Shown here: piece by piece, positions 36,657 through 63,480 of the stretch
Layout: each line of letters starts with the position of its first letter
Position numbering within the stretch: the first letter of the stretch is position 1
Assembly (NCBI GenBank): GCA_947649365.1
Contig: CANSRH010000007.1
Coordinates: forward strand, 854 to 64,853
Direction of reading: 5' to 3'
Origin: an uncultured Mycoplasmatota bacterium
GTDB lineage: Bacteria; Bacillota_I; Bacilli_A; RF39; UBA660
DNA: 64,000 nucleotides
Position numbers and translations under genes: made by a program
Notes under the pieces: model-generated
Database searches by the model: none
What the model saw: the letters and a program-made list of their open reading frames with translations, nothing else
What the model was told of the DNA's origin: nothing

Positions 36657-38879
36657 CTACTCTTCGCTCGTTTCTTCTTTTAATTTCACTAAGACCTCTC
36701 TAGGCTTACTTCCGTTTTGTGGTCCAATAATTCCACGTTCTTCTAACAAATCAATAATACGAGCAGCTCGGTTGTAACCAAGGCGGAATCTTCTTTGGAG
36801 TAAAGAAGCACTCACCTTTCCAGTATCAATAGCAAATTTTACAACTTCATCATAAATAGGATCATCACTATCATCATTTTCTCCCCCATGACCAACAGGA
36901 CTACTTCCTTCTATATTGGCATTCGAAAACGATTCATCATAACTAGCGGCTTGTTCATTCGAAACGTGCTTAATAATTCTACCAATTTCATCATCCGAAA
37001 TATAACATCCTTGAATACGTGTTGGATACGGATCTCCCATAGGTAAATAAAGCATATCTCCTTTACCAAGCAATTTTTCAGCTCCAGGAGCATCCAAAAT
37101 GGTTCTTGAATCAATATAACTTGCAACACTAAATGCAATACGAGAAGGAATATTGGTTTTAATTACTCCAGTAATTACATCGGTAGAAGGTCTTTGGGTA
37201 GCAACAATCAAATGAATTCCAGCTGCACGAGCAAGTTGTGTAATACGCATAATGCTATCCTCTACTTCTTTTTTCGCAACAATCATCAAATCTGCCATTT
37301 CATCGACAATAACCACCCAGTAGCTCATTTTATCTGTATGTTCTCTTTCTGCCTTTTTATTATAATCGGCGATATTTTTTACTCCTGCATCTGCTAAAAC
37401 ATGATATCTTTTGTCCATTTCCGTAACAACTTTTTGTAAAGCAACCGCAGCCTTTTTAGGGTCTGTAACAACAGGAACATGCAAATGAGGAATTCCATTA
37501 TAATTGGATAACTCCACTTGTTTGGGATCCACAAGAATAAGTTTCACCTCATCAGGACGATAATGCATCAGTAACGAAATAATAATACTATTAATACAAA
37601 CCGACTTACCACTTCCTGTCGAACCTGCAACCAATAAATGGGGCATTTTCGTTAAATCGGCGTTAATGGTACGTCCTGCAATATCTTTTCCCAAAGTAAC
37701 CAATAAACCTTTTTTTATTTTTTCTGGATTAGCGTCTCCGATGACTTCCTTAATTTGAACAGAAGCCACTTCTTTATTAGGAATCTCAACCCCAATAGTA
37801 CTTTTACCAGGAATCGGTGCTTCAATACGCACGTCTTTCGCAGCTAGAGCAAGAGCAATTTCTTTATTGATACTACTCACCCGACTTAACTTCGTACCAG
37901 TTGGAACCACGACTTCGTATTGCGTAACCGCAGGACCTACATGAATTTCTACCACTTTACCAGAAATTTGAAAATCATTTAAAACACGTTCTAAGCACTC
38001 TTTATTGCTTCTTATAAACTCTGTAGAATTTACCTTTTTTCCTCTTTTCGGCTCATCAAGTAAACTAAGCGGAGGCAACTTGTAAGAATGATTTACAACA
38101 CTATTGGAAGAAGAAGAGAATTCAGGACTATCCATTGTCTTAGGTTCTGATTGATTTTCCATTTGAGGAGCATGATTTTGCTTTAACTCTTCTACACTAG
38201 TAATAATTATTTTATCATCGTCATCATCTGCTCCTGTAATAGGAACCATTTCTTGACTCTCTTCTTTAGAAACAGAAGCTTTTTGCTTTTTCTCTCTTTT
38301 ATGAAACACTTTTCCAAGCAAATTACCTAAATTCAAATTAAATGTCATAACAAGTCCAAAAAGAAACAAGATAGAAAGAACAATATATGTTCCCGTTAAA
38401 CCAAACAAAACAGAAATTCCAAAAGAAAAAGCAGCTCCTAAAATTCCTCCCCCTATCACAATCGAAGTTTGACCCGTACTTGTCAAAATATCCGCTTTAT
38501 TAATAGAAGCCATACGATCCATATAATTATTAATTGTTTCTTGAAAAATATTCGTAGGATTTTCAACACTCTTCACAAAAGTCAAATGAGAAAGAACTAG
38601 AACAATAACAATAAAAATATAAACACCAAGTAACTTAGAGGTAAAAAAATTAGGAAGTTTTCGTTTCATTAACATATGAACACCCAACACAAGAACTAAA
38701 AATAAAACACAAAACCACCATTCGCCAAGCAAAAACATAGCAAATTGTTTTATTATCGCTCCAACAGGACCAAAACCAAATCCAATGAGTCCCACTAAAA
38801 TAAGAAACAAACCAGTAAGTTCTACACTATATTGAAAACTATTTCCACTATCTTCTTTTGACTTTTTCTTCTTTGCCAT
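36657..38879 (-). CDS. ftsK: DNA translocase FtsK/SpoIIIE
   Basis: N-terminal TM segments and a linker are followed by the motor domain with Walker A GSTGSGKS and a C-terminal gamma (winged-helix) domain LLQRRFRLGYNRAARIIDLLEERGIIG. Confidence 0.9.
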   Translation of the reverse strand: MAKKKKSKEDSGNSFQYSVELTGLFLILVGLIGFGFGPVGAIIKQFAMFLLGEWWFCVLFLVLVLGVHMLMKRKLPNFFTSKLLGVYIFIVIVLVLSHLTFVKSVENPTNIFQETINNYMDRMASINKADILTSTGQTSIVIGGGILGAAFSFGISVLFGLTGTYIVLSILFLFGLVMTFNLNLGNLLGKVFHKREKKQKASVSKEESQEMVPITGADDDDDKIIITSVEELKQNHAPQMENQSEPKTMDSPEFSSSSNSVVNHSYKLPPLSLLDEPKRGKKVNSTEFIRSNKECLERVLNDFQISGKVVEIHVGPAVTQYEVVVPTGTKLSRVSSINKEIALALAAKDVRIEAPIPGKSTIGVEIPNKEVASVQIKEVIGDANPEKIKKGLLVTLGKDIAGRTINADLTKMPHLLVAGSTGSGKSVCINSIIISLLMHYRPDEVKLILVDPKQVELSNYNGIPHLHVPVVTDPKKAAVALQKVVTEMDKRYHVLADAGVKNIADYNKKAEREHTDKMSYWVVIVDEMADLMIVAKKEVEDSIMRITQLARAAGIHLIVATQRPSTDVITGVIKTNIPSRIAFSVASYIDSRTILDAPGAEKLLGKGDMLYLPMGDPYPTRIQGCYISDDEIGRIIKHVSNEQAASYDESFSNANIEGSSPVGHGGENDDSDDPIYDEVVKFAIDTGKVSASLLQRRFRLGYNRAARIIDLLEERGIIGPQNGSKPREVLVKLKEETSEE

Positions 38880-48150: not shown

Positions 48151-48411
48151 CTACTTTGCTTCTACAATTAATTTAATAGCTGTTTTTTGTTCCCCATTAA
48201 TGACGATATCACTAAACGCAGGAATACAAACTAAATTTTCTCCACTTGGAGCAACAAATCCTCTTGCAATTGCAATAGCCTTGATCGCCTGATTTAAACT
48301 TCCAGCTCCAATAGTTTGTATTTCAACACTTTTACTTTCTCGATAAATATTGGCAATCGCTCCAGCCACCTTACTTGGATTTGATTTTGATGATACTTTT
48401 AATATTTCCAT
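48151..48411 (-). CDS. spoVS: Stage V sporulation protein S
   Basis: MEILKVSSKSNPSKVAGAIANIYRESKSVEIQTIGAGSLNQAIKAIAIARGFVAPSGENLVCIPAFSDIVINGEQKTAIKLIVEAK aligns almost residue-for-residue with B. subtilis SpoVS. GAAGGAGGAAATATG RBS. The 132-aa ORF-track version carries a spurious N-terminal extension. Confidence 0.85.
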   Translation of the reverse strand: MEILKVSSKSNPSKVAGAIANIYRESKSVEIQTIGAGSLNQAIKAIAIARGFVAPSGENLVCIPAFSDIVINGEQKTAIKLIVEAK

Positions 48412-48466
48412 ATTTCCTCCTTCAATTTTTTTATAATAAACTATATGAAAAAGAAAAAAAAAAAGA

Positions 48467-48976
48467 CTAAGATTCTTCAATAAAATTCTTACTCTTGTGT
48501 GGCTCATCGCATAATAAATCTCTATAATTTTGTTGCCGTAGAGCTTCATACACCATAATTGCTACGGCATTAGAAAGATTAAGGGCACGTACTTTATCGG
48601 TCATTGGCATACGCATACAGTGTTCGATGTAAGGCTTCAAAATTTTTGGTGGAATACCCGTACTTTCTTTACCAAAAATAAAATAAATATTTTCTTTTGT
48701 ATCACTATAATCAAAACTTGTATGAGGTTGATGACCATACCTCGTTAAAAAATAATACGTTCCTTGATTCTTACTAAAAAAATCTTCTATGTTTTCATAC
48801 ACAGTATAATCACAATATTCAATATAGTTTACTCCACTTCGTTTAATATACTTTTCATCCAAAGAAAAACCAAGTGGTTGAATTAAATGCAACTTCGTAT
48901 TCGTTGCCACACAAGTCCGCATGATATTACCAGTATTTCCTGGTATTTCTGGTTCAAATAAAACAACATGTAACAT
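48467..48976 (-). CDS. trmL: tRNA (cytidine/uridine-2'-O)-methyltransferase TrmL (SpoU/TrmH family)
   Basis: At 169 aa, with EPEIPGNTGNIMRTC and ALNLSNAVAIMVYEALRQ, the SPOUT knot motifs. Confidence 0.8.
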   Translation of the reverse strand: MLHVVLFEPEIPGNTGNIMRTCVATNTKLHLIQPLGFSLDEKYIKRSGVNYIEYCDYTVYENIEDFFSKNQGTYYFLTRYGHQPHTSFDYSDTKENIYFIFGKESTGIPPKILKPYIEHCMRMPMTDKVRALNLSNAVAIMVYEALRQQNYRDLLCDEPHKSKNFIEES

Positions 48977-50690: not shown

Positions 50691-51248
50691 CTAATAGCCT
50701 CTTTTTTTATAATGTTTATACAATTCTTTAAAACGATTAAAATGGATAATTTCTCTTTGACGTAAGAATAAAAGTGGTCCAATGACATCTTCATCGGTTG
50801 CCAGTTCAATTAAATTTTCATACACGGCTCTTGCTTTTTGCTCCGCAGCCATATCCTCAGAAATATCAGCAATGGGATCTCCTGTTACAGCAAAATAAGC
50901 AGTTGTATAAGGAACTCCACTTGCATTGGATGGATACACACCTAAACCATGTTCAGAATACATATCTCCAAGTCCTGCTGCTTTCATTTCTTCTACACTT
51001 GCCCCTTCTGTAAGTTGTTTAATCATTGTAGCAATCATTTCAACATGACCTAGTTCCTCCGTTGCTATATCATTTAATAAGCTTTTCCCTTTTTCATCAG
51101 GCATAGAAAATTTTTGACTAAAATAACGTAAAGCCGCTGCAAGCTCAGAATTAGAACCTCCAAATTGGGTATGTAGATACTTTGCCATTTTCAAATCTCT
51201 TTTTTTAATATTCACTGGATAATTTAAAGTTTTCATATATTTAAACAT
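50691..51248 (-). CDS. cotJC: Spore coat protein CotJC (manganese-catalase-like ferritin fold)
   Basis: LNYPVNIKKRDLKMAKYL...GGSNSELAAALRYFSQKFSMPD...TEELGHVEMIATMI...GDPIADISEDMAAEQKARAVYENLIEL aligns throughout with B. subtilis CotJC. Confidence 0.85.
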   Translation of the reverse strand: MFKYMKTLNYPVNIKKRDLKMAKYLHTQFGGSNSELAAALRYFSQKFSMPDEKGKSLLNDIATEELGHVEMIATMIKQLTEGASVEEMKAAGLGDMYSEHGLGVYPSNASGVPYTTAYFAVTGDPIADISEDMAAEQKARAVYENLIELATDEDVIGPLLFLRQREIIHFNRFKELYKHYKKRGY

Positions 51249-51699
51249 ACATACTACCTCCTGATTTATCCCATGGCCATGGATTTTTCATCCATTCATA
51301 ACTTCCACCACTTGTTTGATCCAAAGAAAGTGGACCATATTGTTTTGCATATTGATCTTTTAATTCTATGCACTCTTTCGTATATTGTTTAAACTTTTCA
51401 TATATTTTTTGGTCCTCAGGATGTAAATCTAAATATAAGTTTAAATCATTCACAGCAAAATCTTTCTCCATAATTTGATAAAGCAATGCTTCTCGTTCAC
51501 AAGTTGGACGCAATGGCATATACGTCATTCCTTTATAAGGTTCGTACTCATTTTTCCACATATTTCCTCGTAAAAAACCTTCTTTAGAATTTACAAGTGC
51601 ATCGTCTTGAAAACCAAAATAATTTTGCTCAGGTTCTGAAAAAGAAAAGCCAGCCAATGAGAGAACATCAAAATCGTAATCATTATTTTCAAATAACAT
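51241..51699 (-). CDS. cotJB: CotJB-family spore coat protein with an N-terminal CotJA-like extension (apparent cotJA-cotJB fusion)
   Basis: The C-terminal half (IMEKDFAVNDLNLYLDLHPEDQKIYEKFKQYTKECIELKDQYAKQYGPL...NPWPWDKSG) matches CotJB. The N-terminal ~65 aa (FLRGNMWKNEYEPYKG, PTCEREAL) resembles the CotJA C-terminal motif. It overlaps cotJC by 8 nt. Confidence 0.6.
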   Translation of the reverse strand: MLFENNDYDFDVLSLAGFSFSEPEQNYFGFQDDALVNSKEGFLRGNMWKNEYEPYKGMTYMPLRPTCEREALLYQIMEKDFAVNDLNLYLDLHPEDQKIYEKFKQYTKECIELKDQYAKQYGPLSLDQTSGGSYEWMKNPWPWDKSGGSMYV

Positions 51700-54529: not shown

Positions 54530-55777
54530 CTACATGTCAATGCGATAAGGATTCTCTCTTGAACCATCACCACTTTTATATTTTATATTTGCTTTTAAAT
54601 AAAATACTGGTCGAACACCTTTCCCAACAGTAGAATGAGCCATAATCACTTCTCCTGTAGAAGAAATACTAACAACATAATACCCACCGTTTATACCCGA
54701 ACTCTCTTGAGTAATAACCCATTCATCGTATTTATTTTCTAAATTATAGAGCCAAGAACCAGATAAATAATTTCCAGTATAAGATTTTATAGACAAATCA
54801 AAATAATTGGTTCCAAGAGAATAGCCATAATCAGAAGGATACATAAGACCTATCTTTCCAAGAAATTGCAACATTCCTTTATTTACTCCTTTTGTAGAAG
54901 AACGTTCAATTTGATAAAACTGATTGGGAGAATAATTTTCATAACTACCATAAGTAATCGAACCCAAATACCATAAAGTATCTTCTACATAATTCTTGTA
55001 TTCCCCAAAACTATTCCAATAGACATCATTTAATACGTTTCTTTGTAACGTACTTTCTTCCCATTTAACCGTAGAATTATGATTCCAACTATATCCGACT
55101 CCATTCGTTGCAGAAGAAGAATTTTTTAAAAAACCACTACTCGTTTCTGTATAATTGCTTGCTTTAATTAACTTCACTCGATTCTCGTATTCTCCATCCA
55201 TACTTTTTTGAGTTGGTATCACTCCAATAATTCGATATAAATTGTCATCTGTACAATTCTCACTACATCCAAAATACACATAATTATTTACTTCTTCATT
55301 CGATCCAACATATCGATAATCTTCTAATGCTGGTGTCTGTTCTGTTGCTTCATGACTTACCTTGACTACATGATTACTCGTATCACTTAAATCCTTTATA
55401 TACTCACTAAAATATTTCCCTCGTTTAAATTGGATGGTACATTTTGTCTTTGTTTCTTTAATATTCTGAAGATAAGGTCCCCATCTTTCATAATCCCAAT
55501 ATCCTTTGGCCCCTTTATCACAAGTTATACTTACATCATACGCTCCCTTACTAGGTAATGTATTTATACTTTCTCCATCCATTGTAATGGCAAGTTCCAA
55601 ATCTCCACTAACAAACGATGGTACTCGTCCTCTTAGGACATTGAATGTCTTTTCTTCTTTATATAAAGCAAATGTTTTGTATAGTGTTATACTTCCTAGT
55701 ACTATCAGTATCCCTAATATAGAACCAAGTACTACTTTCTTGTTTCTTTTGTTTTTACTAAATTTTTCTAATTTCAA
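54530..55777 (-). CDS. Membrane-anchored secreted protein of unknown function, paralog of 22229..23485
   Basis: It shares a near-identical N-terminal ~95 aa (signal anchor through ITCDKGA) and scattered conserved blocks (YFGCSENCT.DNLYR.IGVIPTQ, ENRVKLIKA, IGLMYPSDY, GDGSRENPYRI). The start was set at the TTG 10 nt after AGGAGAG (MKLEKFSKNK); the ORF track extends it to 55876. Confidence 0.55.
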   Translation of the reverse strand: MKLEKFSKNKRNKKVVLGSILGILIVLGSITLYKTFALYKEEKTFNVLRGRVPSFVSGDLELAITMDGESINTLPSKGAYDVSITCDKGAKGYWDYERWGPYLQNIKETKTKCTIQFKRGKYFSEYIKDLSDTSNHVVKVSHEATEQTPALEDYRYVGSNEEVNNYVYFGCSENCTDDNLYRIIGVIPTQKSMDGEYENRVKLIKASNYTETSSGFLKNSSSATNGVGYSWNHNSTVKWEESTLQRNVLNDVYWNSFGEYKNYVEDTLWYLGSITYGSYENYSPNQFYQIERSSTKGVNKGMLQFLGKIGLMYPSDYGYSLGTNYFDLSIKSYTGNYLSGSWLYNLENKYDEWVITQESSGINGGYYVVSISSTGEVIMAHSTVGKGVRPVFYLKANIKYKSGDGSRENPYRIDM

Positions 55778-55909
55778 TTTCAACACTCTCCTAAAATATG
55801 AATTGCCATATTGTACAAAAAGAATAACAAAAGAAAACGAACAAAACCACGACATAACACTTCGTGGCAAATTCAAAAAATATATGACATAGTATATTCA
55901 AGTGATTCT

Positions 55910-56116
55910 ATGATAAAAAAATATAGAAAACAAGCAAAATTAACACAAGAAGAATTAGCAGAAAAATTAGAAATTAGCACTAGACAATTACAACGTTTAG
56001 AAAAGAAAACAGATCTTCCAAGCTTTTCTACTCTACAAAAAATGGTAATTATTCTAAATATTAATGATGCAGATTTAGGAAACTACGTAAGAAATTTAAA
56101 AAAAAGAATAAAATAA
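55910..56116 (+). CDS. Small XRE-family HTH transcriptional regulator
   Basis: AKLTQEELAEKLEISTRQLQRLEKKTDLPSFSTLQKMVIILNINDADL is the HTH region. The start was chosen at the internal ATG; the ORF track starts at 55811. Confidence 0.5.
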   Translation: MIKKYRKQAKLTQEELAEKLEISTRQLQRLEKKTDLPSFSTLQKMVIILNINDADLGNYVRNLKKRIK

Positions 56117-56157
56117 ATTAAAAAAATCTCCTTTTTCCTAGGAGACTTTTTATATTT

Positions 56158-56820
56158 TTAAATTTTATATAATTTTGTATTTTTACGCGAAATAGTAAAT
56201 ACACCAACCGCTAAAACAATTCCAGCAATGATAACAAGGTATGGCATAGAACTACCAGTTTGAGGATTAGTTACACATTCAGCATTGTAAACAGCCTCAG
56301 TAACTTCATTTCCATTTTTACCATAGTATTTTCCACCAATAACACGACAAGTATAACTTTCTTCTACTGTAATTTTGTTACCACAAGTAAAATTTCCATT
56401 TTCGTCATAACAAGGAATCAACTCAATTGCACATTTTTCCCCAGCCGTATTTACATCTAAAACAATTGTTGCAATTGTAAACTTCGCACTAGACACGGGA
56501 CTAGTTGTTGTAAAGATTAAATTTGTATTTGAAGTAGACTCATTTACCCAAGGACTACTTGCAGTAATAGATTTTACTGTCATATTTTGTAAAGCAAGTG
56601 TTGCAGTAAATCTTGATAAACTGCTTCCTCCAGTAGCTCTACCTATAATATAGCAAGTTTCTTCTGTTGCATTTCCTCTCTCATCATGTTTAGTAGCTTC
56701 ACAATAAAAACCATCTTTACTACTTCCTTTTACAGTTTCATTGAAAGCTAAGTCTGCATTTACGCTCATTGGTAATACTACCATCATTGCTAAAACGATT
56801 AAGCCTATAACTTTTTTCAT
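56158..56820 (-). CDS. Cys-rich secreted protein with C-terminal NPQTG sortase sorting signal (candidate sortase B substrate)
   Basis: The signal peptide MKKVIGLIVLAMMVVLPMSVNA opens a mature domain with about 9 Cys. It ends in NPQTG, a hydrophobic segment (LVIIAGIVLAVGVFTI) and a basic tail SRKNTKLYKI, a textbook cell-wall sorting signal of the NPxTG class. Confidence 0.6.
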   Translation of the reverse strand: MKKVIGLIVLAMMVVLPMSVNADLAFNETVKGSSKDGFYCEATKHDERGNATEETCYIIGRATGGSSLSRFTATLALQNMTVKSITASSPWVNESTSNTNLIFTTTSPVSSAKFTIATIVLDVNTAGEKCAIELIPCYDENGNFTCGNKITVEESYTCRVIGGKYYGKNGNEVTEAVYNAECVTNPQTGSSMPYLVIIAGIVLAVGVFTISRKNTKLYKI

Positions 56821-56962
56821 TTTATATACCTCTTTCTTCTACTATTATGTCTTAATTATAGCATAAAAATTCATAAAAGCTATCATTTTTTATAAAATAT
56901 ACAAAAAATCTGTAAATTTGTGGTATGATATAAAATGTAAGAATAAAAAAGGTGGTGGTTTC

Positions 56963-58516
56963 ATGCAAAAAATTTTGATGAGTATATCAAAAGAAACAAT
57001 ACGATTTACATACAAAGAAGAACCATCTTTTGCCATTAAATTAGATAAAGAACATACCACTACTTCCAATGAAATTTCATTTACAAAAGAATACATTACC
57101 ATTCATCAAAAAATAGTCACAGATTTTATTTTAGAGCTTTGTAAAGAGAAAAATATTCGTAGTGTTTCTTTTGAAACCTATGAACTTGCCCTATTTTTAT
57201 TGGAATTATTCAAAAAAAATCCAGAAATTCATGCGATTTGCATCCGTGAAGCTGCTCCTTTAACGTTTTCATTGTATGAAAAAATAATAGAAAACAAAAA
57301 CATTCATTATGTAGAAGCAGAAAGCATTCCAAAATACATGATTGAAATGCTAGACAAAAAAGGTATACGTTCTGAATCTCGGACAGAAATCTTCTATCCG
57401 AGTGAATTAATGCAAACCAACAACCTAGTGAGTTATTCCAAAATTTTTTATAAAACCAACATCCGCATTGGAACCATATTTACAGAAGAAGATCGCGACG
57501 ACTTTCTAGCGTTCTGTAACATCAACAATTACTTAAAAACCATTCATTTGGATATATTTAACAAACGAGATTTAGAATTTATTTTAGACAGCATTACAGA
57601 AAATCGAAGAAAAAATATTAACATCTTAATTCATGTCAACATAAAAGATTACAAAACCATTGAATACTTGAAAAAAACCAACAAAAGAATGAAAAAAAAC
57701 AAATTACACATTGATCTTGTCTATGACAAAGAATATTTAAAAAACAATTTATTTCCTCAAATTCTTATGAATATGTTAAAAATATGTGGTTTAATTTTAG
57801 TTATCTTTGTAGTAAGCATTATTAGTTACATCAGTATAAGCAATTACGTTGCCTTACAAGAAGTAACTCAAATACAAGAAAACCTAAAAGAAACCATTAA
57901 AGAAGGCAATACAGAAAATATAGAAATTGAAAACCCTATTGAAAAAGAAATCAAAAACGATTACATTGTATCCTTACTTCCAATTAACCCTGATGTCATT
58001 GGATGGTTAAAAGTAAACAACACCAATGTAGACTATCCAGTAGTCCAATCAAATGACAACGAATACTATTTAAAACACAATCTTTACAAAGAAACCGATA
58101 AAAATGGCTGGATATTTATGGATTATAGAAACTCTCACAACTTTTTAGATGCGAACACCATTATTTATGGCCACAACATGTACTATAGTGGAGTCATGTT
58201 TGGAACTCTTGTCAATGCTTACAAAAAAACCTGGTATACAAACCCTGAAAATCAAATCATTAGTTACGATACCATCTACGAAAGCAACAAATACCAAATC
58301 TTCTCTATTTATAAAGTACAAAAAACAAAAGATTATTTAAAAACTTATTTCGGTAGTGACGAAGAATTCAACAACTATGTTGATCTTGTAAAAGGAAGAA
58401 GCATTCATGACTTTGGAATAGAAGTCAACCCAGGAGACAAAATATTAACCCTTTCTACCTGCACAGGAGAAAATCAACGTCTCGTCATTCATGCCAAATT
58501 AATACCTGAGAGTTAA
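56963..58516 (+). CDS. srtB: Class B-like sortase with an unusual ~280-aa N-terminal cytoplasmic domain of unknown function
   Basis: The C-terminal ~230 aa carry sortase B hallmarks: YPVVQSNDNEYYLKHNLY, the catalytic His in IIYGHNM, the TLSTC catalytic Cys motif and RLVIHAKL. A TM helix sits at LILVIFVVSIISYISI. AGGTGGTGG precedes the ATG at 56963. Confidence 0.7.
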   Translation: MQKILMSISKETIRFTYKEEPSFAIKLDKEHTTTSNEISFTKEYITIHQKIVTDFILELCKEKNIRSVSFETYELALFLLELFKKNPEIHAICIREAAPLTFSLYEKIIENKNIHYVEAESIPKYMIEMLDKKGIRSESRTEIFYPSELMQTNNLVSYSKIFYKTNIRIGTIFTEEDRDDFLAFCNINNYLKTIHLDIFNKRDLEFILDSITENRRKNINILIHVNIKDYKTIEYLKKTNKRMKKNKLHIDLVYDKEYLKNNLFPQILMNMLKICGLILVIFVVSIISYISISNYVALQEVTQIQENLKETIKEGNTENIEIENPIEKEIKNDYIVSLLPINPDVIGWLKVNNTNVDYPVVQSNDNEYYLKHNLYKETDKNGWIFMDYRNSHNFLDANTIIYGHNMYYSGVMFGTLVNAYKKTWYTNPENQIISYDTIYESNKYQIFSIYKVQKTKDYLKTYFGSDEEFNNYVDLVKGRSIHDFGIEVNPGDKILTLSTCTGENQRLVIHAKLIPES

Positions 58517-59613
58517 TTCTCAGGCTTTTTTATACTTTCTTCCATCCAATGGAAATTATTTTTAATTCTCTCATCCATTGGGCTAAGTTCCAATGCTTTT
58601 TTTACATATAGAAAAGCTTCTTCCTTTTTTCCTAAAGAATAAGCAACTACACTAAACAAATCATAAAAATAAGAATTCCAACAAAAATCTTCATTAATAT
58701 ACGTCTTTGGTTTTTCTGTAATCTTACTAGCCTCTTTCAAATAATCATAAGCCTCTTTATCATTTCCTTCTTCATAACATAAAGTAGCAAGTTCCACATA
58801 AGCTTCCCGTAAATAAGGTGCTTCTGTAATCGCTTTAGAAAACCACATTTTCGCTTCAATAGGACGTTGCAATCCAATATAAGACCTAGCAATAAAACGC
58901 ATCGAAGCTGCCCTCTCATCTTTCCATGTACTACTTTTCAAACGTAAATGGCGAAGCAAAGTATCAATCGCCTCATTCCATTTTTTATAATACATATACT
59001 CACGACCCAAATAATGCATATTCCGATCATCCTCTGGATCTTCTTTCACAGACTCCTCTAAAAGTGGTAAATAAGAACTTCTTGGTTTAGTCAAATCCTG
59101 ATGGTGATTAAGTACCATTCCCTCAACTACAACACTCTTTTCCTTCTCACCTATGAACTTCAAAACCTCATGTACAGGATGTTCCCAAACATAAGAATCT
59201 TTTCTATGAATTTTAGACATATAAAAAGTGGTTGCAGGATTTCCATAAGAATCAAAACTCCAGTTGTATAAATAATCCACTCGAGTAGGTTGTTCTTTTA
59301 ACCAAACATCTTCTAGCTTTTCTCTCCATCCAGGTTCAAAAACCTCATCAAAATCAGTACAAATACAAATATCCGCATCATCAGGCACCATATCCAAAGA
59401 CTTATTTCTGGCAACATCAAAACGAAAAGGTTCTATTTTTTCTTCTCGAACAACCACTTTACTATGTCCTTTCAAAAGCTCTACAGTAGCATCAGTCGAT
59501 CCAGTATCTAAAACATAAATACCATCTGCTTCACTCATACTTTTTATATAACGATCTACAAACTTACTTTCATTTTTACTTATAGCATACACATAAACTT
59601 TTAGTTTTTTCAT
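58513..59613 (-). CDS. Family 2 glycosyltransferase (GT-A fold) with C-terminal TPR-like repeats
   Basis: The N-terminus VYVYAISKNESKFVDRYIKSMSEADGIYVLDTGSTDATVELLK and a D-x-D-like DFDEVF mark the GT-A fold. The C-terminal helical-repeat region is LGREYMYYKKWNEAIDTLL...AYVELATLCYEEGNDKEAYDYLKEA. The start is at the Met of MKKLKVY, with GAAGGAGGA upstream. Confidence 0.7.
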   Translation of the reverse strand: MKKLKVYVYAISKNESKFVDRYIKSMSEADGIYVLDTGSTDATVELLKGHSKVVVREEKIEPFRFDVARNKSLDMVPDDADICICTDFDEVFEPGWREKLEDVWLKEQPTRVDYLYNWSFDSYGNPATTFYMSKIHRKDSYVWEHPVHEVLKFIGEKEKSVVVEGMVLNHHQDLTKPRSSYLPLLEESVKEDPEDDRNMHYLGREYMYYKKWNEAIDTLLRHLRLKSSTWKDERAASMRFIARSYIGLQRPIEAKMWFSKAITEAPYLREAYVELATLCYEEGNDKEAYDYLKEASKITEKPKTYINEDFCWNSYFYDLFSVVAYSLGKKEEAFLYVKKALELSPMDERIKNNFHWMEESIKKPEN

Positions 59614-59697: not shown

Positions 59698-61395
59698 TTA
59701 ATTACAAGTATAACCAATTCCAGATAAATAAGCACGTAAGATACTAGCATTTTCTGGTAAATTTCCATTCACATCTTGATTCATATCTTTCAACGTTTTA
59801 TCCGTTTTAATAGCAATACTTTTTTCCGCATCACTTAGTATTTCCGTTCCAATGATTCCATGAATACCCAAAGAAGCATCATAATTACGAACGGCTTGAT
59901 TATAATCTTCTAACGTAGTATACGTAAATAGCGATGTTCTAACAGCTTGAAAGAAATTATCCTTAGCATCCACTCCAATACGATAAGAATGGACAAGCAT
60001 AGCAGGAATATCCTCTAATGTCTCTTCTTTAGACACACAAGTTATATATTTCACTGGAGCATTTTTAGCAACAGTCAACTTAGCACTAACTTTCGATTCA
60101 TTATTAAAATTATCACTAACTACAAGTTGAATTTCATACTCTCCTACTTTTTCTGTAATACCTGTATAATCTTCTGCAAACTTATAACTACAACTAGATG
60201 CATCACTACACTTTTCAATAAAATCTTCTGCATTCAAAGTAGCATTCGGAAGTAAAACTACATCTTGTGTAGTTACTTTTGGAGCAATAGAATCATCTAC
60301 AATAAGAGTTCCCTCTTCTGTAACTTTTCCACAAGTCACTTGATATTTATATGTACTTACTTTATTCACGTCTACACTAGATAAATCAATCGTACAATTT
60401 GCTTTATCATAACCGGTAATGGTAGCATAATCATCAATGGTAGAAGACATCGTATTTCCGAGTTCTAATTTTACATCTTTTAAAACAATAGATGCTTTAT
60501 TAGCACTTGCCTTTGCTATAGAAAGGAAATAATAAACGCCAAAACCAATCGCTGCCACTAAAATAATAAGTAACACAACAATCATTGTTTTTCTACTATC
60601 GCCTTTCTTTCTCTCCTTCTTTTCTTTTTTCTTCTTTCCGTCATCAAAAACGGGAGGAACAGGAACAGCTCCAAAATCATCTTGTGGAGTTGGAGTCATA
60701 GAAGAAATAGGTTCTACATTTGCTCCTTCACCAACAGGAAGTGTAGAAACATCAAGTGTCTCTACAGAACCATTTTCCATAATAGGAGAAGTAGATGGTG
60801 AAGAATTTAGGTTTGTATCTAAAGTAGGAGCTTTTACTCCATTGGGAAGTGAAGAAATAGAAGACTCTAACGTTTCTACTGGTGAAGACACTAAAACATT
60901 TGGATTTTCACCTAAACTTGGTTGTGGTGTAGGAATATTTACATTTTGAATTTCTGGAATGGACTCAATTTGAGAAACAGAAGGCGTCGCACCAAAAACT
61001 TCATTAGAAGAAGCACTTGTATCTACAACTGGAGTATCCAAAACAGGAGTTACAGAAGGAATAGGTTCCACCACTGGTTCTTCCATAATTGGTCTTGCTT
61101 CCATAGGCGTTGAGATACTACTCATTTCTGTTGTTCCCATACTAGTATTTTGTGGAGTCGTAGCTGGAGTTCCATTCAAAATAGAATCCAAAGTAGGTCT
61201 CACAGGTTCTACATTTTGTTTTGGAAGTTCTTGTGAAATAGTTTCTTTTGGTATATTAGTTGTCTCCAAACCTCCTATCGTCGAAGTCATTCCTTCATTT
61301 GTATTGATTGGTGTTGGATTGGGAACAGGAGTAATTGTTTCATTACTATTATTTGTATTTGTCCCACTTAATCCATTCGTATTTTGATTATCCAT
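59698..61395 (-). CDS. Bitopic membrane protein: ~260-aa Ser/Thr/Pro/Asn-rich low-complexity cytoplasmic N-terminal region, one TM helix, ~270-aa extracytoplasmic domain
   Basis: There is no signal peptide. A KKKKEKKERKKGDSRK cluster immediately precedes the TM segment MIVVLLIILVAAIGFGVYYFL, so the positive-inside rule places the N-terminus in the cytoplasm. The C-terminal domain carries several Cys. Confidence 0.55.
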   Translation of the reverse strand: MDNQNTNGLSGTNTNNSNETITPVPNPTPINTNEGMTSTIGGLETTNIPKETISQELPKQNVEPVRPTLDSILNGTPATTPQNTSMGTTEMSSISTPMEARPIMEEPVVEPIPSVTPVLDTPVVDTSASSNEVFGATPSVSQIESIPEIQNVNIPTPQPSLGENPNVLVSSPVETLESSISSLPNGVKAPTLDTNLNSSPSTSPIMENGSVETLDVSTLPVGEGANVEPISSMTPTPQDDFGAVPVPPVFDDGKKKKEKKERKKGDSRKTMIVVLLIILVAAIGFGVYYFLSIAKASANKASIVLKDVKLELGNTMSSTIDDYATITGYDKANCTIDLSSVDVNKVSTYKYQVTCGKVTEEGTLIVDDSIAPKVTTQDVVLLPNATLNAEDFIEKCSDASSCSYKFAEDYTGITEKVGEYEIQLVVSDNFNNESKVSAKLTVAKNAPVKYITCVSKEETLEDIPAMLVHSYRIGVDAKDNFFQAVRTSLFTYTTLEDYNQAVRNYDASLGIHGIIGTEILSDAEKSIAIKTDKTLKDMNQDVNGNLPENASILRAYLSGIGYTCN

Positions 61396-61578: not shown

Positions 61579-62241
61579 TTAATTCGCTTTTATCTTTTCT
61601 ACATAGTATCGTATTCTAGATGCCCAGGTTTTACTTTCCGCATATTTTTTACCAATTTTTTCAATGGTATTGAGTCCCTTTTTGTAATAATTATCAGATA
61701 AATTTTTGAAGAAAGCTTCAATTCCAGCATTTAAAGTTTTAAAACTTCCATAACCAGAACTTCCGCAAGATCTGTTTCCGCGCATACCTCCAATATTATT
61801 ACACTTGCTCACCAAAGTACTACACCTTCCAGAATCACATCCGGTCTCATGTAAGACAATAGCTAACGCAACATAAGGGTCCACTTCATAGTTTAATGAA
61901 TACTCGGCAAAAATGGTACCATATCCTGATAACGTAGATTTAAGATTTCTATTTAATTTAGAAGCAAGTTCTTCTTTCGTCATTCCATCGTATACTTCTA
62001 CACGAGAAACTTCTTCTACTGCTTCCTTATCACTACTCACAAACGAAACATCTTCATTTGTATCATTTACTTCTTTTTGTAACGTACTACTACTTGCATT
62101 GCATGTAAAATTGTATTCGTTTTCTATAGTAGAACTTGTTTTTAAATCCTTATTCCCCTCTGTTTTATTTACAAACAGAAAAGATACAAGAACGAATACG
62201 ATTATGGCCAGTACGGCCTTAACCGACGGTAATTTTTTCAT
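61579..62241 (-). CDS. Exported glucosaminidase-domain (GH73-like, mannosyl-glycoprotein endo-beta-N-acetylglucosaminidase family) protein
   Basis: An N-terminal signal anchor is followed by PYVALAIVLHETGCDSGRCSTLVSKCNNIGGMRG, which matches the glucosaminidase-domain core. Confidence 0.55.
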   Translation of the reverse strand: MKKLPSVKAVLAIIVFVLVSFLFVNKTEGNKDLKTSSTIENEYNFTCNASSSTLQKEVNDTNEDVSFVSSDKEAVEEVSRVEVYDGMTKEELASKLNRNLKSTLSGYGTIFAEYSLNYEVDPYVALAIVLHETGCDSGRCSTLVSKCNNIGGMRGNRSCGSSGYGSFKTLNAGIEAFFKNLSDNYYKKGLNTIEKIGKKYAESKTWASRIRYYVEKIKAN

Positions 62242-62383: not shown

Positions 62384-62905
62384 TTAGCCAAATAAGAAAG
62401 AAACAATCAAAAAACTAGCAACAATTCCTACGAAATCTGCAAATAAACCAGTCGACAATGCATGCCTTGTTTTATTAATTTTAATACTTCCAAAATAAAG
62501 AGCCAATACATAAATGGTTGTATCTGTACACCCTTGAATCACAGAAGCAAGCCGTCCAGCAAACGAATCAGGTCCAAGTTTTATAAAAATATCATTCATA
62601 ATAGCCAAAGAAGCCGTTCCTGAAATAGGACGTACAAATGCCATTGGCAAAATAGAAAGCGGAATCTGAAAAAAAGAAAGAACAGGAGACAAAATTTGAA
62701 AAAAAGTCTCCAAAATACCACTATTCAAAAAAACATTAATAGCAAACACCATAGCAATAATAGAAGGAAAAATATGAAAAGCCGTCACTAACCCCTCTTT
62801 AGCACCATCCAAAAACGTATCATAAATAAGAACTTTCTTTTTCATTCCATAAAAAACCACAAACAAAACAAATAATGGAATGATAATTTTAGAAATAGTA
62901 CTCAT
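62384..62905 (-). CDS. spmB: Spore maturation protein B
   Basis: A nucleoside-recognition-type membrane protein of 173 aa, immediately downstream of spmA and overlapping it by 4 nt, the conserved dacB-spmA-spmB order. Confidence 0.8.
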   Translation of the reverse strand: MSTISKIIIPLFVLFVVFYGMKKKVLIYDTFLDGAKEGLVTAFHIFPSIIAMVFAINVFLNSGILETFFQILSPVLSFFQIPLSILPMAFVRPISGTASLAIMNDIFIKLGPDSFAGRLASVIQGCTDTTIYVLALYFGSIKINKTRHALSTGLFADFVGIVASFLIVSFLFG

Positions 62906-63480
62906 TTTCTCTTTCGCCTCCTAAAATAATCAAGAGTAAGACCTGCAACACTTGAACAAAGAGTAGCTAAAATAGCTGGCAAAATAATTTCCTCTGGGTT
63001 CGCACTCCCATGCATCAAACGTAAAGCAATCACTGTAGTTGGAATAATGGTAACTCCACTCGTATTTAAAACCAAAAAAGTAATCATCCCATCACTAGCT
63101 ACTTTTTTATCCTGATTTTCCTTTTGCATCTCCTCCATCGCTTTTAAACCAAAAGGAGTAGCAGCAGACCCTAGACCTAAAGCATTAGCAACAATATTAG
63201 AAGTGATATAACCAAGCGCTTTACTATCCCGTTTTAAAGAAGGGAACAACTTGCCAAGCAAAGGTCGAAACACTTTAGAAATACTTTCCAAAACTCCACT
63301 TTTCTCTGCAATTTTCATAAGTCCCGACCATAAAACCAAAATAGGAAGCAACTCCAAAACCATTTTTACTCCCCCAGAAGCACTCGTTAAAATGGTATCA
63401 TTTAAATTGCTCACTTCCCCAAAAAGAAGAGTAAAAACAATACCAATTAAAATAAACAAACCCCAAATTTTATTAATCAT
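62902..63480 (-). CDS. spmA: Spore maturation protein A
   Basis: MINKIWGLFILIGIVFTLLFG...LELLPILVLWSGLMKIAEKSGV...ALGLGSAATPFGLKAMEE is typical SpmA. It sits between dacB and spmB. Confidence 0.8.
   Translation of the reverse strand: MINKIWGLFILIGIVFTLLFGEVSNLNDTILTSASGGVKMVLELLPILVLWSGLMKIAEKSGVLESISKVFRPLLGKLFPSLKRDSKALGYITSNIVANALGLGSAATPFGLKAMEEMQKENQDKKVASDGMITFLVLNTSGVTIIPTTVIALRLMHGSANPEEIILPAILATLCSSVAGLTLDYFRRRKRK

Follow-up and report, generated by a model that had tools for sequence, protein, structure and literature searches.

Sortases are usually held to read their clients through the extracellular pentapeptide only, with the cytoplasmic tail acting as a generic retention signal; in classical sorting signals this tail varies in sequence and is just basic. 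The known substrate motifs of class B sortases (SrtB) include NPQTN for the SrtB/IsdC pair of Staphylococcus aureus, NPKTG in Bacillus anthracis, and (S/P)PxTG and NVQTG in Clostridioides difficile. A long cytoplasmic N-terminal extension of 100-200 amino acids (aa), parts of which are needed in vivo, has been described for SrtE1, a class E sortase of Streptomyces coelicolor (Kattke et al. 2016, PMC5148588). The extension was speculated by these authors to bind other proteins, and such segments were reported to be absent from nearly all other sortases (PMC5148588).

Here, a 64,000-nt stretch of DNA from an uncultured Mycoplasmatota bacterium (the window) was analysed, in which positions 56158-58516 held two genes transcribed divergently with 142 bp between them. 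One encoded a long class B sortase, and the other a small Cys-rich protein with an NPQTG sorting signal. At a probability of roughly 40%, we propose that the two form a dedicated SrtB/substrate pair in which a cytoplasmic domain of the sortase docks the tail of the substrate.

The long sortase and its divergent partner

The two genes and their parts were delimited as follows.

56963..58516, plus strand: long class B sortase gene, 517 aa and stop, a single open reading frame (ORF)
56963..57781, plus strand: predicted cytoplasmic N-terminal domain (N-domain), aa 1-273 (folded aa 1-268), an N-terminal β-hairpin followed by ~8 β-α units
57782..57856, plus strand: single predicted transmembrane helix, aa 274-298, from hydropathy and flanking charges, N-in/C-out
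57857..58513, plus strand: extracellular linker and SrtB catalytic domain, from TIGR03064 and alignment to 2oqw
58172-58174 (His404), 58460-58462 (Cys500) and 58478-58480 (Arg506), plus strand: catalytic residues, from alignment to B. anthracis SrtB 2oqw
56158..56820, minus strand: candidate dedicated substrate, 220 aa, with signal peptide, seven Cys and sorting signal at the C-terminus
56254..56268, minus strand: NPQTG pentapeptide, aa 185-189, read from the sequence
56161..56190, minus strand: cytoplasmic tail SRKNTKLYKI, aa 211-220, with the Tyr at -3 invariant in the homologues seen

The sortase ORF as listed opened at TTG 56918 (532 aa). The real start is probably ATG 56963, leaving TTG 56918 unused, because the sequence aaaGGTGGTGG lies 5 nt before this ATG and the relatives open with the same MQKI/MKKI. 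The resulting 517-aa frame contained no internal stops and no frameshifts, and the same protein (P0169, 517 aa, 100% identity) was present in the NCBI and ENA assemblies. The sole hydrophobic segment found by hydropathy was aa 274-298 (ICGLILVIFVVSIISYISISNYVAL). Since the N-terminus had no signal peptide and the helix was flanked by a K-rich stretch on its N side and an acidic one on its C side, the predicted topology puts aa 1-273 in the cytoplasm and the catalytic domain outside the cell, the usual orientation of a sortase. The 517-codon ORF is no chance feature, as it was kept as a single ORF in ~60 diverged clusters and the DNA has only 28% G+C. The host is read as a low-G+C (28-33%), spore-forming member of the Bacillota, whose RpoB was nearer to those of B. 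subtilis and S. aureus than to that of C. difficile.

The extracellular part scored 175.6 bits against the class B sortase model TIGR03064 (cut-off 153.75), matching model positions 7-232 of 235, and this cut-off was also passed by the distant long sortases of loci L012, L013 and L016. The best sequence matches in the PDB were SrtB of B. anthracis, Listeria monocytogenes, C. difficile and S. aureus (E 3e-36 to 1e-31), and the motifs IYGHNM, TLSTC and QRLVIHAKL were in register with those of B. anthracis SrtB (2oqw). No class E catalytic domain was detected, the NCBIfam sortase models matched by the window sortase all being class B. On every sequence-testable criterion, the enzyme is a class B sortase (TIGR03064 / MEROPS C60B).

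The putative substrate began with a signal peptide (MKKVIGLIVLAMMVVLPMSVNA) and contained seven Cys (positions 40, 56, 130, 137, 146, 158 and 182). A hydrophobic stretch of 21 residues lay between NPQTG and the tail. The protein exceeded the cut-off of the LPXTG-anchor model TIGR01167 (17.7 vs 15.9) and was below that of Pfam Gram_pos_anchor (14.6 vs 20). It is read here as carrying a bona fide LPXTG-type signal of NPxTG flavour, and this was the only C-terminal sorting signal in the window.

A first-pass annotation of this DNA had described an SrtB-type catalytic domain with His/Cys/Arg motifs, about 280 aa ahead of the transmembrane helix, and a divergent secreted protein with an NPQTG signal followed by a hydrophobic segment and a basic tail. 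The first was confirmed by TIGR03064 and the alignment to 2oqw, and the third by the score against TIGR01167. The length was correct within the choice of start codon (273 aa from ATG 56963). The hidden stop or frameshift that the annotation had considered was not found in the sortase gene, the N-terminal part being in frame with the catalytic part, and its count of ~9 Cys in the substrate is replaced by seven.

Besides the window, nine related contexts shared the divergent sortase/substrate arrangement (twelve loci), distributed as follows.

L001, L003, L010/L011, L012, L014, L015, L017/L018, L019/L020: loci with the divergent pair, from genomic context
L001, L003, L010/L011: NPQTG protein divergent from a long sortase
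L014: NPTTG protein divergent from a long sortase
L015: NPDTG protein divergent from a long sortase
L012: ETPTG protein divergent from a long sortase

Loci L001, L003, L010/L011, L012, L014 and L015 were reached via the N-domain of the sortase and were hence unselected on the substrate. The pair was kept although identity fell to 37-39% in the N-domain and to 21-37% in the substrate. The first-pass annotation had taken the NPQTG protein for the dedicated substrate of the sortase and had asked whether the two genes co-occur in relatives; their divergent pairing in the window and the nine other contexts supports this assignment.

The C-terminal signal was the best conserved part of the substrate. 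After TG, it consisted of [SNTA]-[FS]-x-[PS]-Y, a hydrophobic segment and [RK]-K-[NK]-x-K-[LM]-Y-[KRH]-[IV] at the C-terminus. In the loci reached from the sortase, the tails were KNTKLYKI, KNNKLYKI, KKNNKLYKI, KKNTKLYRV and RKKAKMYHV, and the pentapeptide drifted (NPQTG, NPTTG, NPDTG, ETPTG) while the tail persisted. A search with the substrate alignment gave a substrate family of 69 clusters, with Tyr at -3 in 69/69, Leu at -4 in 66/69, Asn at -7 in 67/69 and Lys at -8 in 65/69, and with a distance from TG to the C-terminus of exactly 33 residues in 66/69. Pentapeptide variants in these clusters were NKQTG, NPKTG, ETPTG, TETG-type and NVPSG. The same signal, with a tail of the form [RK]K-x-x-K-[LMI]-Y-x-[IV], was present on unrelated ectodomains, namely P0294 (384 aa), P0296 (407 aa) and a ~300-aa ETPTG/TETG/NVPSG group. 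When two tail-bearing proteins were looked up independently, both adjoined a long sortase: P0294 in L017/L018, where two substrates stand in tandem, and P0293 in L019/L020, an NVPSG protein. By what is established for LPXTG signals, such conservation of the tail would not be expected of a generic basic retention signal.

The N-domain of the window sortase matched no Pfam or NCBIfam family. A word-indexed homologue search with aa 1-271 returned only three relatives, an impression of rarity that was later corrected by profile searches. When 1.84 billion representatives were searched exhaustively with a profile, 172 clusters fell in the family at E<=1e-3, of which 106 also passed E<=1e-10, and a profile-seeded search of a 5.8-billion-protein collection recovered dozens of relatives at 55-82% identity and a further tier at 29-40%. 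The full-length members (~60; 507-565 aa) all consisted of the N-domain, one helix at around residue 255-283 and a sortase part ending in LSTC...R-[LV]-V-[VI]-H-A. The relatives came largely from gut metagenomes, mostly from low-G+C bacteria, and carried the name 'sortase B' only, where the source named them at all. Assemblies with the long sortase gene include GCA_948479395.1, GCA_948652905.1, GCA_947588935.1 and GCA_900089715.1. No match was obtained with Pfam for 30 diverse members (E<=1; leucine-rich repeat (LRR) families included), with the family profile among PDB sequences (E<=10), with the N-domain in a tblastn search of plasmid and phage records, or with a degenerate 137-nt DNA pattern of the family in viral contigs. 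As far as sequence comparison can tell, the N-domain is a real conserved domain forming an uncharacterised family of its own.

Modelling with AlphaFold2 gave the N-domain a predicted local distance difference test score (pLDDT) of 76 with a 4-sequence alignment, and of 93.7 with a 93-sequence alignment (predicted template modelling score 0.86). The model consisted of an N-terminal β-hairpin followed by ~8 β-α units of 25-30 residues, with a low-confidence loop at aa 24-33. Its last helix (aa 256-268) abutted the transmembrane helix; because it runs straight into that helix, the modelled domain must sit against the inner membrane face. Two residues, N153 and N188, were nearly invariant and stood in hydrophobic x-x-N-x-x-L contexts, and R140, E142, S147, D177, D180 and K192 were strongly conserved. 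In three Foldseek searches (two models against the PDB, one against BFVD), the recurrent best matches were LRR proteins: SKP2, NLRP2/3/7, NLRC4, tropomodulin/leiomodin, CD14, ribonuclease inhibitor and giant-virus LRR/F-box proteins. With moderate confidence at best, the domain may be a divergent LRR-like β-α repeat, and with the same reserve it may be a protein-binding scaffold rather than an enzyme or a small-molecule sensor. The first-pass annotation had suggested that the domain could link sorting to an intracellular signal or scaffold; a fold of the protein-binding type, if the model is right, favours a scaffolding or recognition role over sensing or catalysis.

Possible roles of the cytoplasmic domain

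In the mechanism that we propose, the small Cys-rich protein would be exported by Sec, after which its C-terminal hydrophobic segment would keep it in the membrane. By analogy, the extracellular SrtB domain would cleave NPQTG between T and G via Cys500, His404 and Arg506, and the cleaved substrate would be transferred to a peptidoglycan precursor; both the cleavage and the anchoring chemistry are carried over from known sortases. Under the membrane, the N-domain would dock the fixed-length tail S-R-K-N-T/N-K-L-Y-K-I-COOH. The client would be read on both membrane faces, by its pentapeptide outside and its tail inside, and docking would give specificity or bring the substrate to the enzyme. The contact between domain and tail is the conjectural part of this chain: that the N-domain is the receptor for the invariant tail, giving two-sided recognition of NPQTG outside and ...K-L-Y-K-I-COOH inside, is a tentative proposal when taken by itself.

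Docking is consistent with the predicted topology, in which the tail emerges on the same membrane face and at the same depth as the N-domain, and with the protein-binding class of the modelled fold. The tail was conserved as strongly as the cleavage motif, and tail-bearing proteins and long sortases travelled together. The conserved acidic positions of the N-domain (E142, D177 and D180) could meet the basic tail. If docking takes place, the positively charged tail would be a specific address and not a generic stop-transfer element, and proteins that consist of an N-domain and a transmembrane helix only could be trans-acting adaptors for ordinary sortases.

Several observations weigh against tail docking. 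The set of 69 substrate clusters is biased to the tail, as the word index favours shared 5-residue words such as KLYKI, and the unbiased substrates, which were derived from adjacency, number only ~7. No sorting-signal protein was found beside the long sortases of L013 and L016 (~30% N-domain identity). A motif that occurs family-wide, LNNTN[VI]I (aa 27-33), lies in the low-confidence loop and was decayed in the window sortase. About 12 proteins of 278-301 aa consisted of an N-domain and a C-terminal helix, without a sortase domain, and the N-domain can therefore have a function independent of a fused sortase. The resemblance of the N-domain to LRR (RNI-like / F-box) solenoids lies in its ~8 β-α units and near-invariant Asn residues, and the assignment is a weak one. 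The Foldseek matches had probabilities of 0.9-0.99 and template modelling scores (TM-scores) of only 0.2-0.38, with 0 PDB matches below E 1e-3 and three BFVD matches just below it; the LRR sequence profile of Pfam was unmatched; and no tandem internal repeats were detected, with hhalign probabilities of <4% between sub-alignments. De novo TIM barrels, Rossmann-like proteins and ATP-citrate lyase reached Foldseek scores similar to those of the LRR proteins.

The stand-alone N-domain proteins (P0041, P0050, P0059, P0061, P0078, P0091, P0098, P0103, P0117 and P0123) are tail-anchored and known from short contigs. The gene for P0103 (L005 393-1262) closed with a genuine stop codon, and a terminator-like hairpin came after it.

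The main alternative, somewhat less probable than tail docking, is that the N-domain is a localisation or scaffold module binding another partner, such as the divisome, the secretion machinery or the sporulation apparatus, while the conserved tail serves another end, for example membrane retention or recognition by a different factor. The protein-binding class of the modelled fold would suit such a module, as would the existence of N-domain proteins without a sortase. The long sortase of L013 adjoined an mraZ-rsmH-divIC-PBP cluster (PBP, penicillin-binding protein) and that of L016 lay between yabP-yqfD and spoIIP, neither with an adjacent substrate, and SrtE1 provides a precedent for a cytoplasmic extension that is functionally important and was speculated to bind proteins (PMC5148588). 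However, a localisation role does not account for a tail that equals the pentapeptide in conservation and accompanies the long sortases. The neighbourhoods of L013 and L016 are also ordinary synteny, with no candidate partner co-conserved.

It is improbable that the enzyme is a general housekeeping sortase with many NPxTG clients, of which the adjacent gene is merely one. The single sortase of C. difficile is an SrtB (PMC4155245); L017 has two substrates, and no fewer than three unrelated types of ectodomain bear the signal. On the other hand, the 64 kb window holds one sorting signal only, and strict divergent adjacency was kept across deep divergence. The L013 genome, moreover, carries a second, short, non-B sortase beside a VPATG-type protein of its own.

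Less probable still is a regulatory role, in which the N-domain, as a sensor or an auto-inhibitory module, would turn the transpeptidase on or off in response to an intracellular signal. The modelled architecture, with a cytoplasmic domain rigidly joined to a transmembrane helix, would allow it, and the polar positions N153, N188, R140, E142, D177 and D180 were strongly conserved. Yet searches of Pfam, NCBIfam and the PDB related the N-domain to no known sensor, enzyme or nucleotide-binding domain. A single transmembrane helix is a poor conduit for a conformational signal unless the protein is oligomeric, and the near-invariant Asn residues can be explained by a structural role, of the kind known from repeat proteins, no less well than by the binding of a ligand.

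That an N-terminal protein and a normal SrtB were joined into an artefactual long ORF by a sequencing error or a wrong ORF call has a negligible probability and was rejected: stand-alone proteins of 278-301 aa exist and an in-frame stop interrupts the sortase of the low-coverage L003 close to its 5' end, but the window ORF was uninterrupted, its 517-aa protein was identical in the NCBI and ENA assemblies, and ~60 diverged clusters from independent assemblies had the same single-ORF layout with only one transmembrane helix, whereas two separate genes would need two membrane anchors.

The stop in L003 (1510-1662), after the first 43 sortase codons on a contig with 2.8x coverage, is most likely a sequencing error, and P0001 (468 aa) therefore looks N-terminally truncated.

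Should tail docking prove wrong, the locus would still hold a neat SrtB/substrate pair, dedicated to each other, in which the accessory domain lacks an explanation.

Expression signals and neighbouring genes

The signals around the pair and the sporulation genes of the window are listed below.

56821..56962, no strand: divergent intergenic region with two extended -10 elements, both conserved in relatives, and two ribosome-binding sites
56855-56863, minus strand: putative extended -10 element, sigma-A-like, of the substrate gene, TGCTATAAT, from an alignment with eight related loci
56921-56929, plus strand: putative extended -10 element, sigma-A-like, of the sortase gene, TGgTATGAT, from an alignment with eight related loci
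56121..56151, no strand: bidirectional terminator-like hairpin after the substrate gene, from the sequence
58504..58525, no strand: bidirectional terminator-like hairpin after the sortase gene, common to the convergent GT2-TPR gene (TPR, tetratricopeptide repeat)
50691-51699, 48151-48549, 62384-63480 and 36657-38879, minus strand, as listed: cotJC-like Mn catalase and cotJB, spoVS, two Gate-domain proteins, FtsK/SpoIIIE translocase

At the level of consensus, the extended -10 elements point to ordinary vegetative expression and not to a sporulation sigma factor. Within 5-20 kb of the pair, the window contained cotJB/cotJC, spoVS, two Gate-domain SpmA/SpmB-like proteins and an FtsK/SpoIIIE translocase, interspersed with the housekeeping genes sufB, RNase J, a P-type ATPase and rpoB/rpoC. 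These cotJC/cotJB, spoVS, Gate-domain and FtsK/SpoIIIE genes show the host to be an endospore former or a descendant of one. Both L010 and L017 kept the gene order of the window, with the ATPase followed by substrate, sortase, GT2-TPR, S/T-rich protein, glucosaminidase, spmB, spmA and D-Ala-D-Ala carboxypeptidase. Since the same order recurs in relatives, the sporulation neighbours are best read as chromosomal synteny.

The first-pass annotation had placed the pair among sporulation genes and raised a role at the spore or mother-cell surface. Such genes do lie 5-20 kb away, but they are not operonic with the pair and housekeeping genes stand between. The surface role found no specific support, given the flanking terminator-like hairpins, the sigma-A-type -10 elements and the synteny, and was set aside: synteny is not co-transcription, and the hairpins bracket both genes.

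Convergent with the sortase gene, 58513-59613 (minus strand) encoded a GT2 glycosyltransferase fused to TPRs, with a strong ribosome-binding site and an ATG at 59613. Its best sequence matches among solved structures were the protein/peptide glycosyltransferases GmaR, a flagellin O-GlcNAc transferase (E 3.5e-5), and SunS, an S-glycosyltransferase (E 1.3e-3), besides the TPRs of OGT. The gene is co-directional with, and just downstream of, 59698-61395 (minus strand), which encoded a 565-aa membrane protein whose first ~260 residues, on the cytoplasmic side, are extremely rich in S/T/P/N. On account of this S/T/P/N-rich region in a co-directional neighbour, the two are a candidate glycosyltransferase/target pair. 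The GT2-TPR gene adjoined the long sortase in L010/L011, L014 and L017, lay one gene further in L015, and did so in neither L012 nor L019. TPRs often bind C-terminal peptides, and a link between the GT2-TPR protein and the sortase system is conceivable.

In the 37-38% tier, a conserved protein of ~1390 aa was encoded directly downstream of the long sortase (L012 6642-10823, L015 3617-7780 and L019 4044-8225); it matched neither Pfam nor NCBIfam families, lacked an obvious signal peptide and was absent from the window. Between the P-type ATPase and the substrate gene, the window carried a 448-aa N-terminally anchored protein without a family match (54530-55876, minus strand) and a small XRE-type helix-turn-helix regulator (55811-56116, plus strand). 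These two look like an insertion specific to the window genome, because the ATPase directly abuts the substrate gene in L010. The gene at 61579-62241 (minus strand) encoded a secreted protein of 220 aa whose glucosaminidase domain scored right at the threshold of Pfam (30.1 vs 30.2 bits). The Cys-rich middle of this protein matched the model of glycocin F, a ribosomally synthesised and post-translationally modified peptide (RiPP), weakly and probably spuriously (E 0.004).

The second sortase of L013 (7454-8822, minus strand; 221 aa) was non-B, with class C/D models as best, sub-threshold matches, and was followed by the protein with the VPATG-type sorting signal. Genomes with a long SrtB can therefore hold more than one sortase system.

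Comparison with described sortase systems

The window sortase and the known SrtBs of S. aureus, B. anthracis, L. monocytogenes and C. difficile have in common a homologous catalytic domain with His-Cys-Arg motifs, type II topology, an NPxTG-type signal and a substrate gene adjoining the sortase gene. While the known SrtBs have ~220-260 aa with few cytoplasmic residues, the window sortase has a 273-residue cytoplasmic domain, predicted to be folded, before a complete SrtB. The tails of the window-type substrates are near-invariant, in contrast to the basic and variable tails of classical sorting signals.

Dedicated sortase systems, namely oral streptococcal SrtB-AbpA (PMC4974636), NF040525 (SrtB_LPKTxSAVK) and NF033846 (Rumino_NPXTG), resemble the locus in that a specialised SrtB stands beside a client with a distinctive extended signal. 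The window proteins were under the cut-offs of NF040525 (81.8 vs 200) and NF033846 (17.7 vs 23.5). As far as their available descriptions go, none of the three systems has a cytoplasmic domain on its sortase.

In a literature search covering NPQTG, sortases with cytoplasmic domains and conserved tails, the architecture was not found described, and SrtE1 was the nearest precedent. SrtE1 and the window sortase are alike in their long cytoplasmic N-terminal extension. SrtE1, however, is a class E enzyme with LAXTG substrates, and its extension is described as variable, with short acidic and basic patches (PMC5148588). The window extension, on the other hand, is well conserved and is predicted with high confidence to be folded, a contrast that rests on the published description of SrtE1.

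The searches define an uncharacterised domain family of 172 representative clusters that has no Pfam or NCBIfam model, and a compact new sorting-signal variant that could become a curated model. As the family couples a complete SrtB with a large folded cytoplasmic domain, it becomes testable whether sorting is specified, gated or localised from inside the cell. Compared with the SrtBs described so far, the departure consists of a 273-residue folded cytoplasmic domain together with a sequence-specific client tail.

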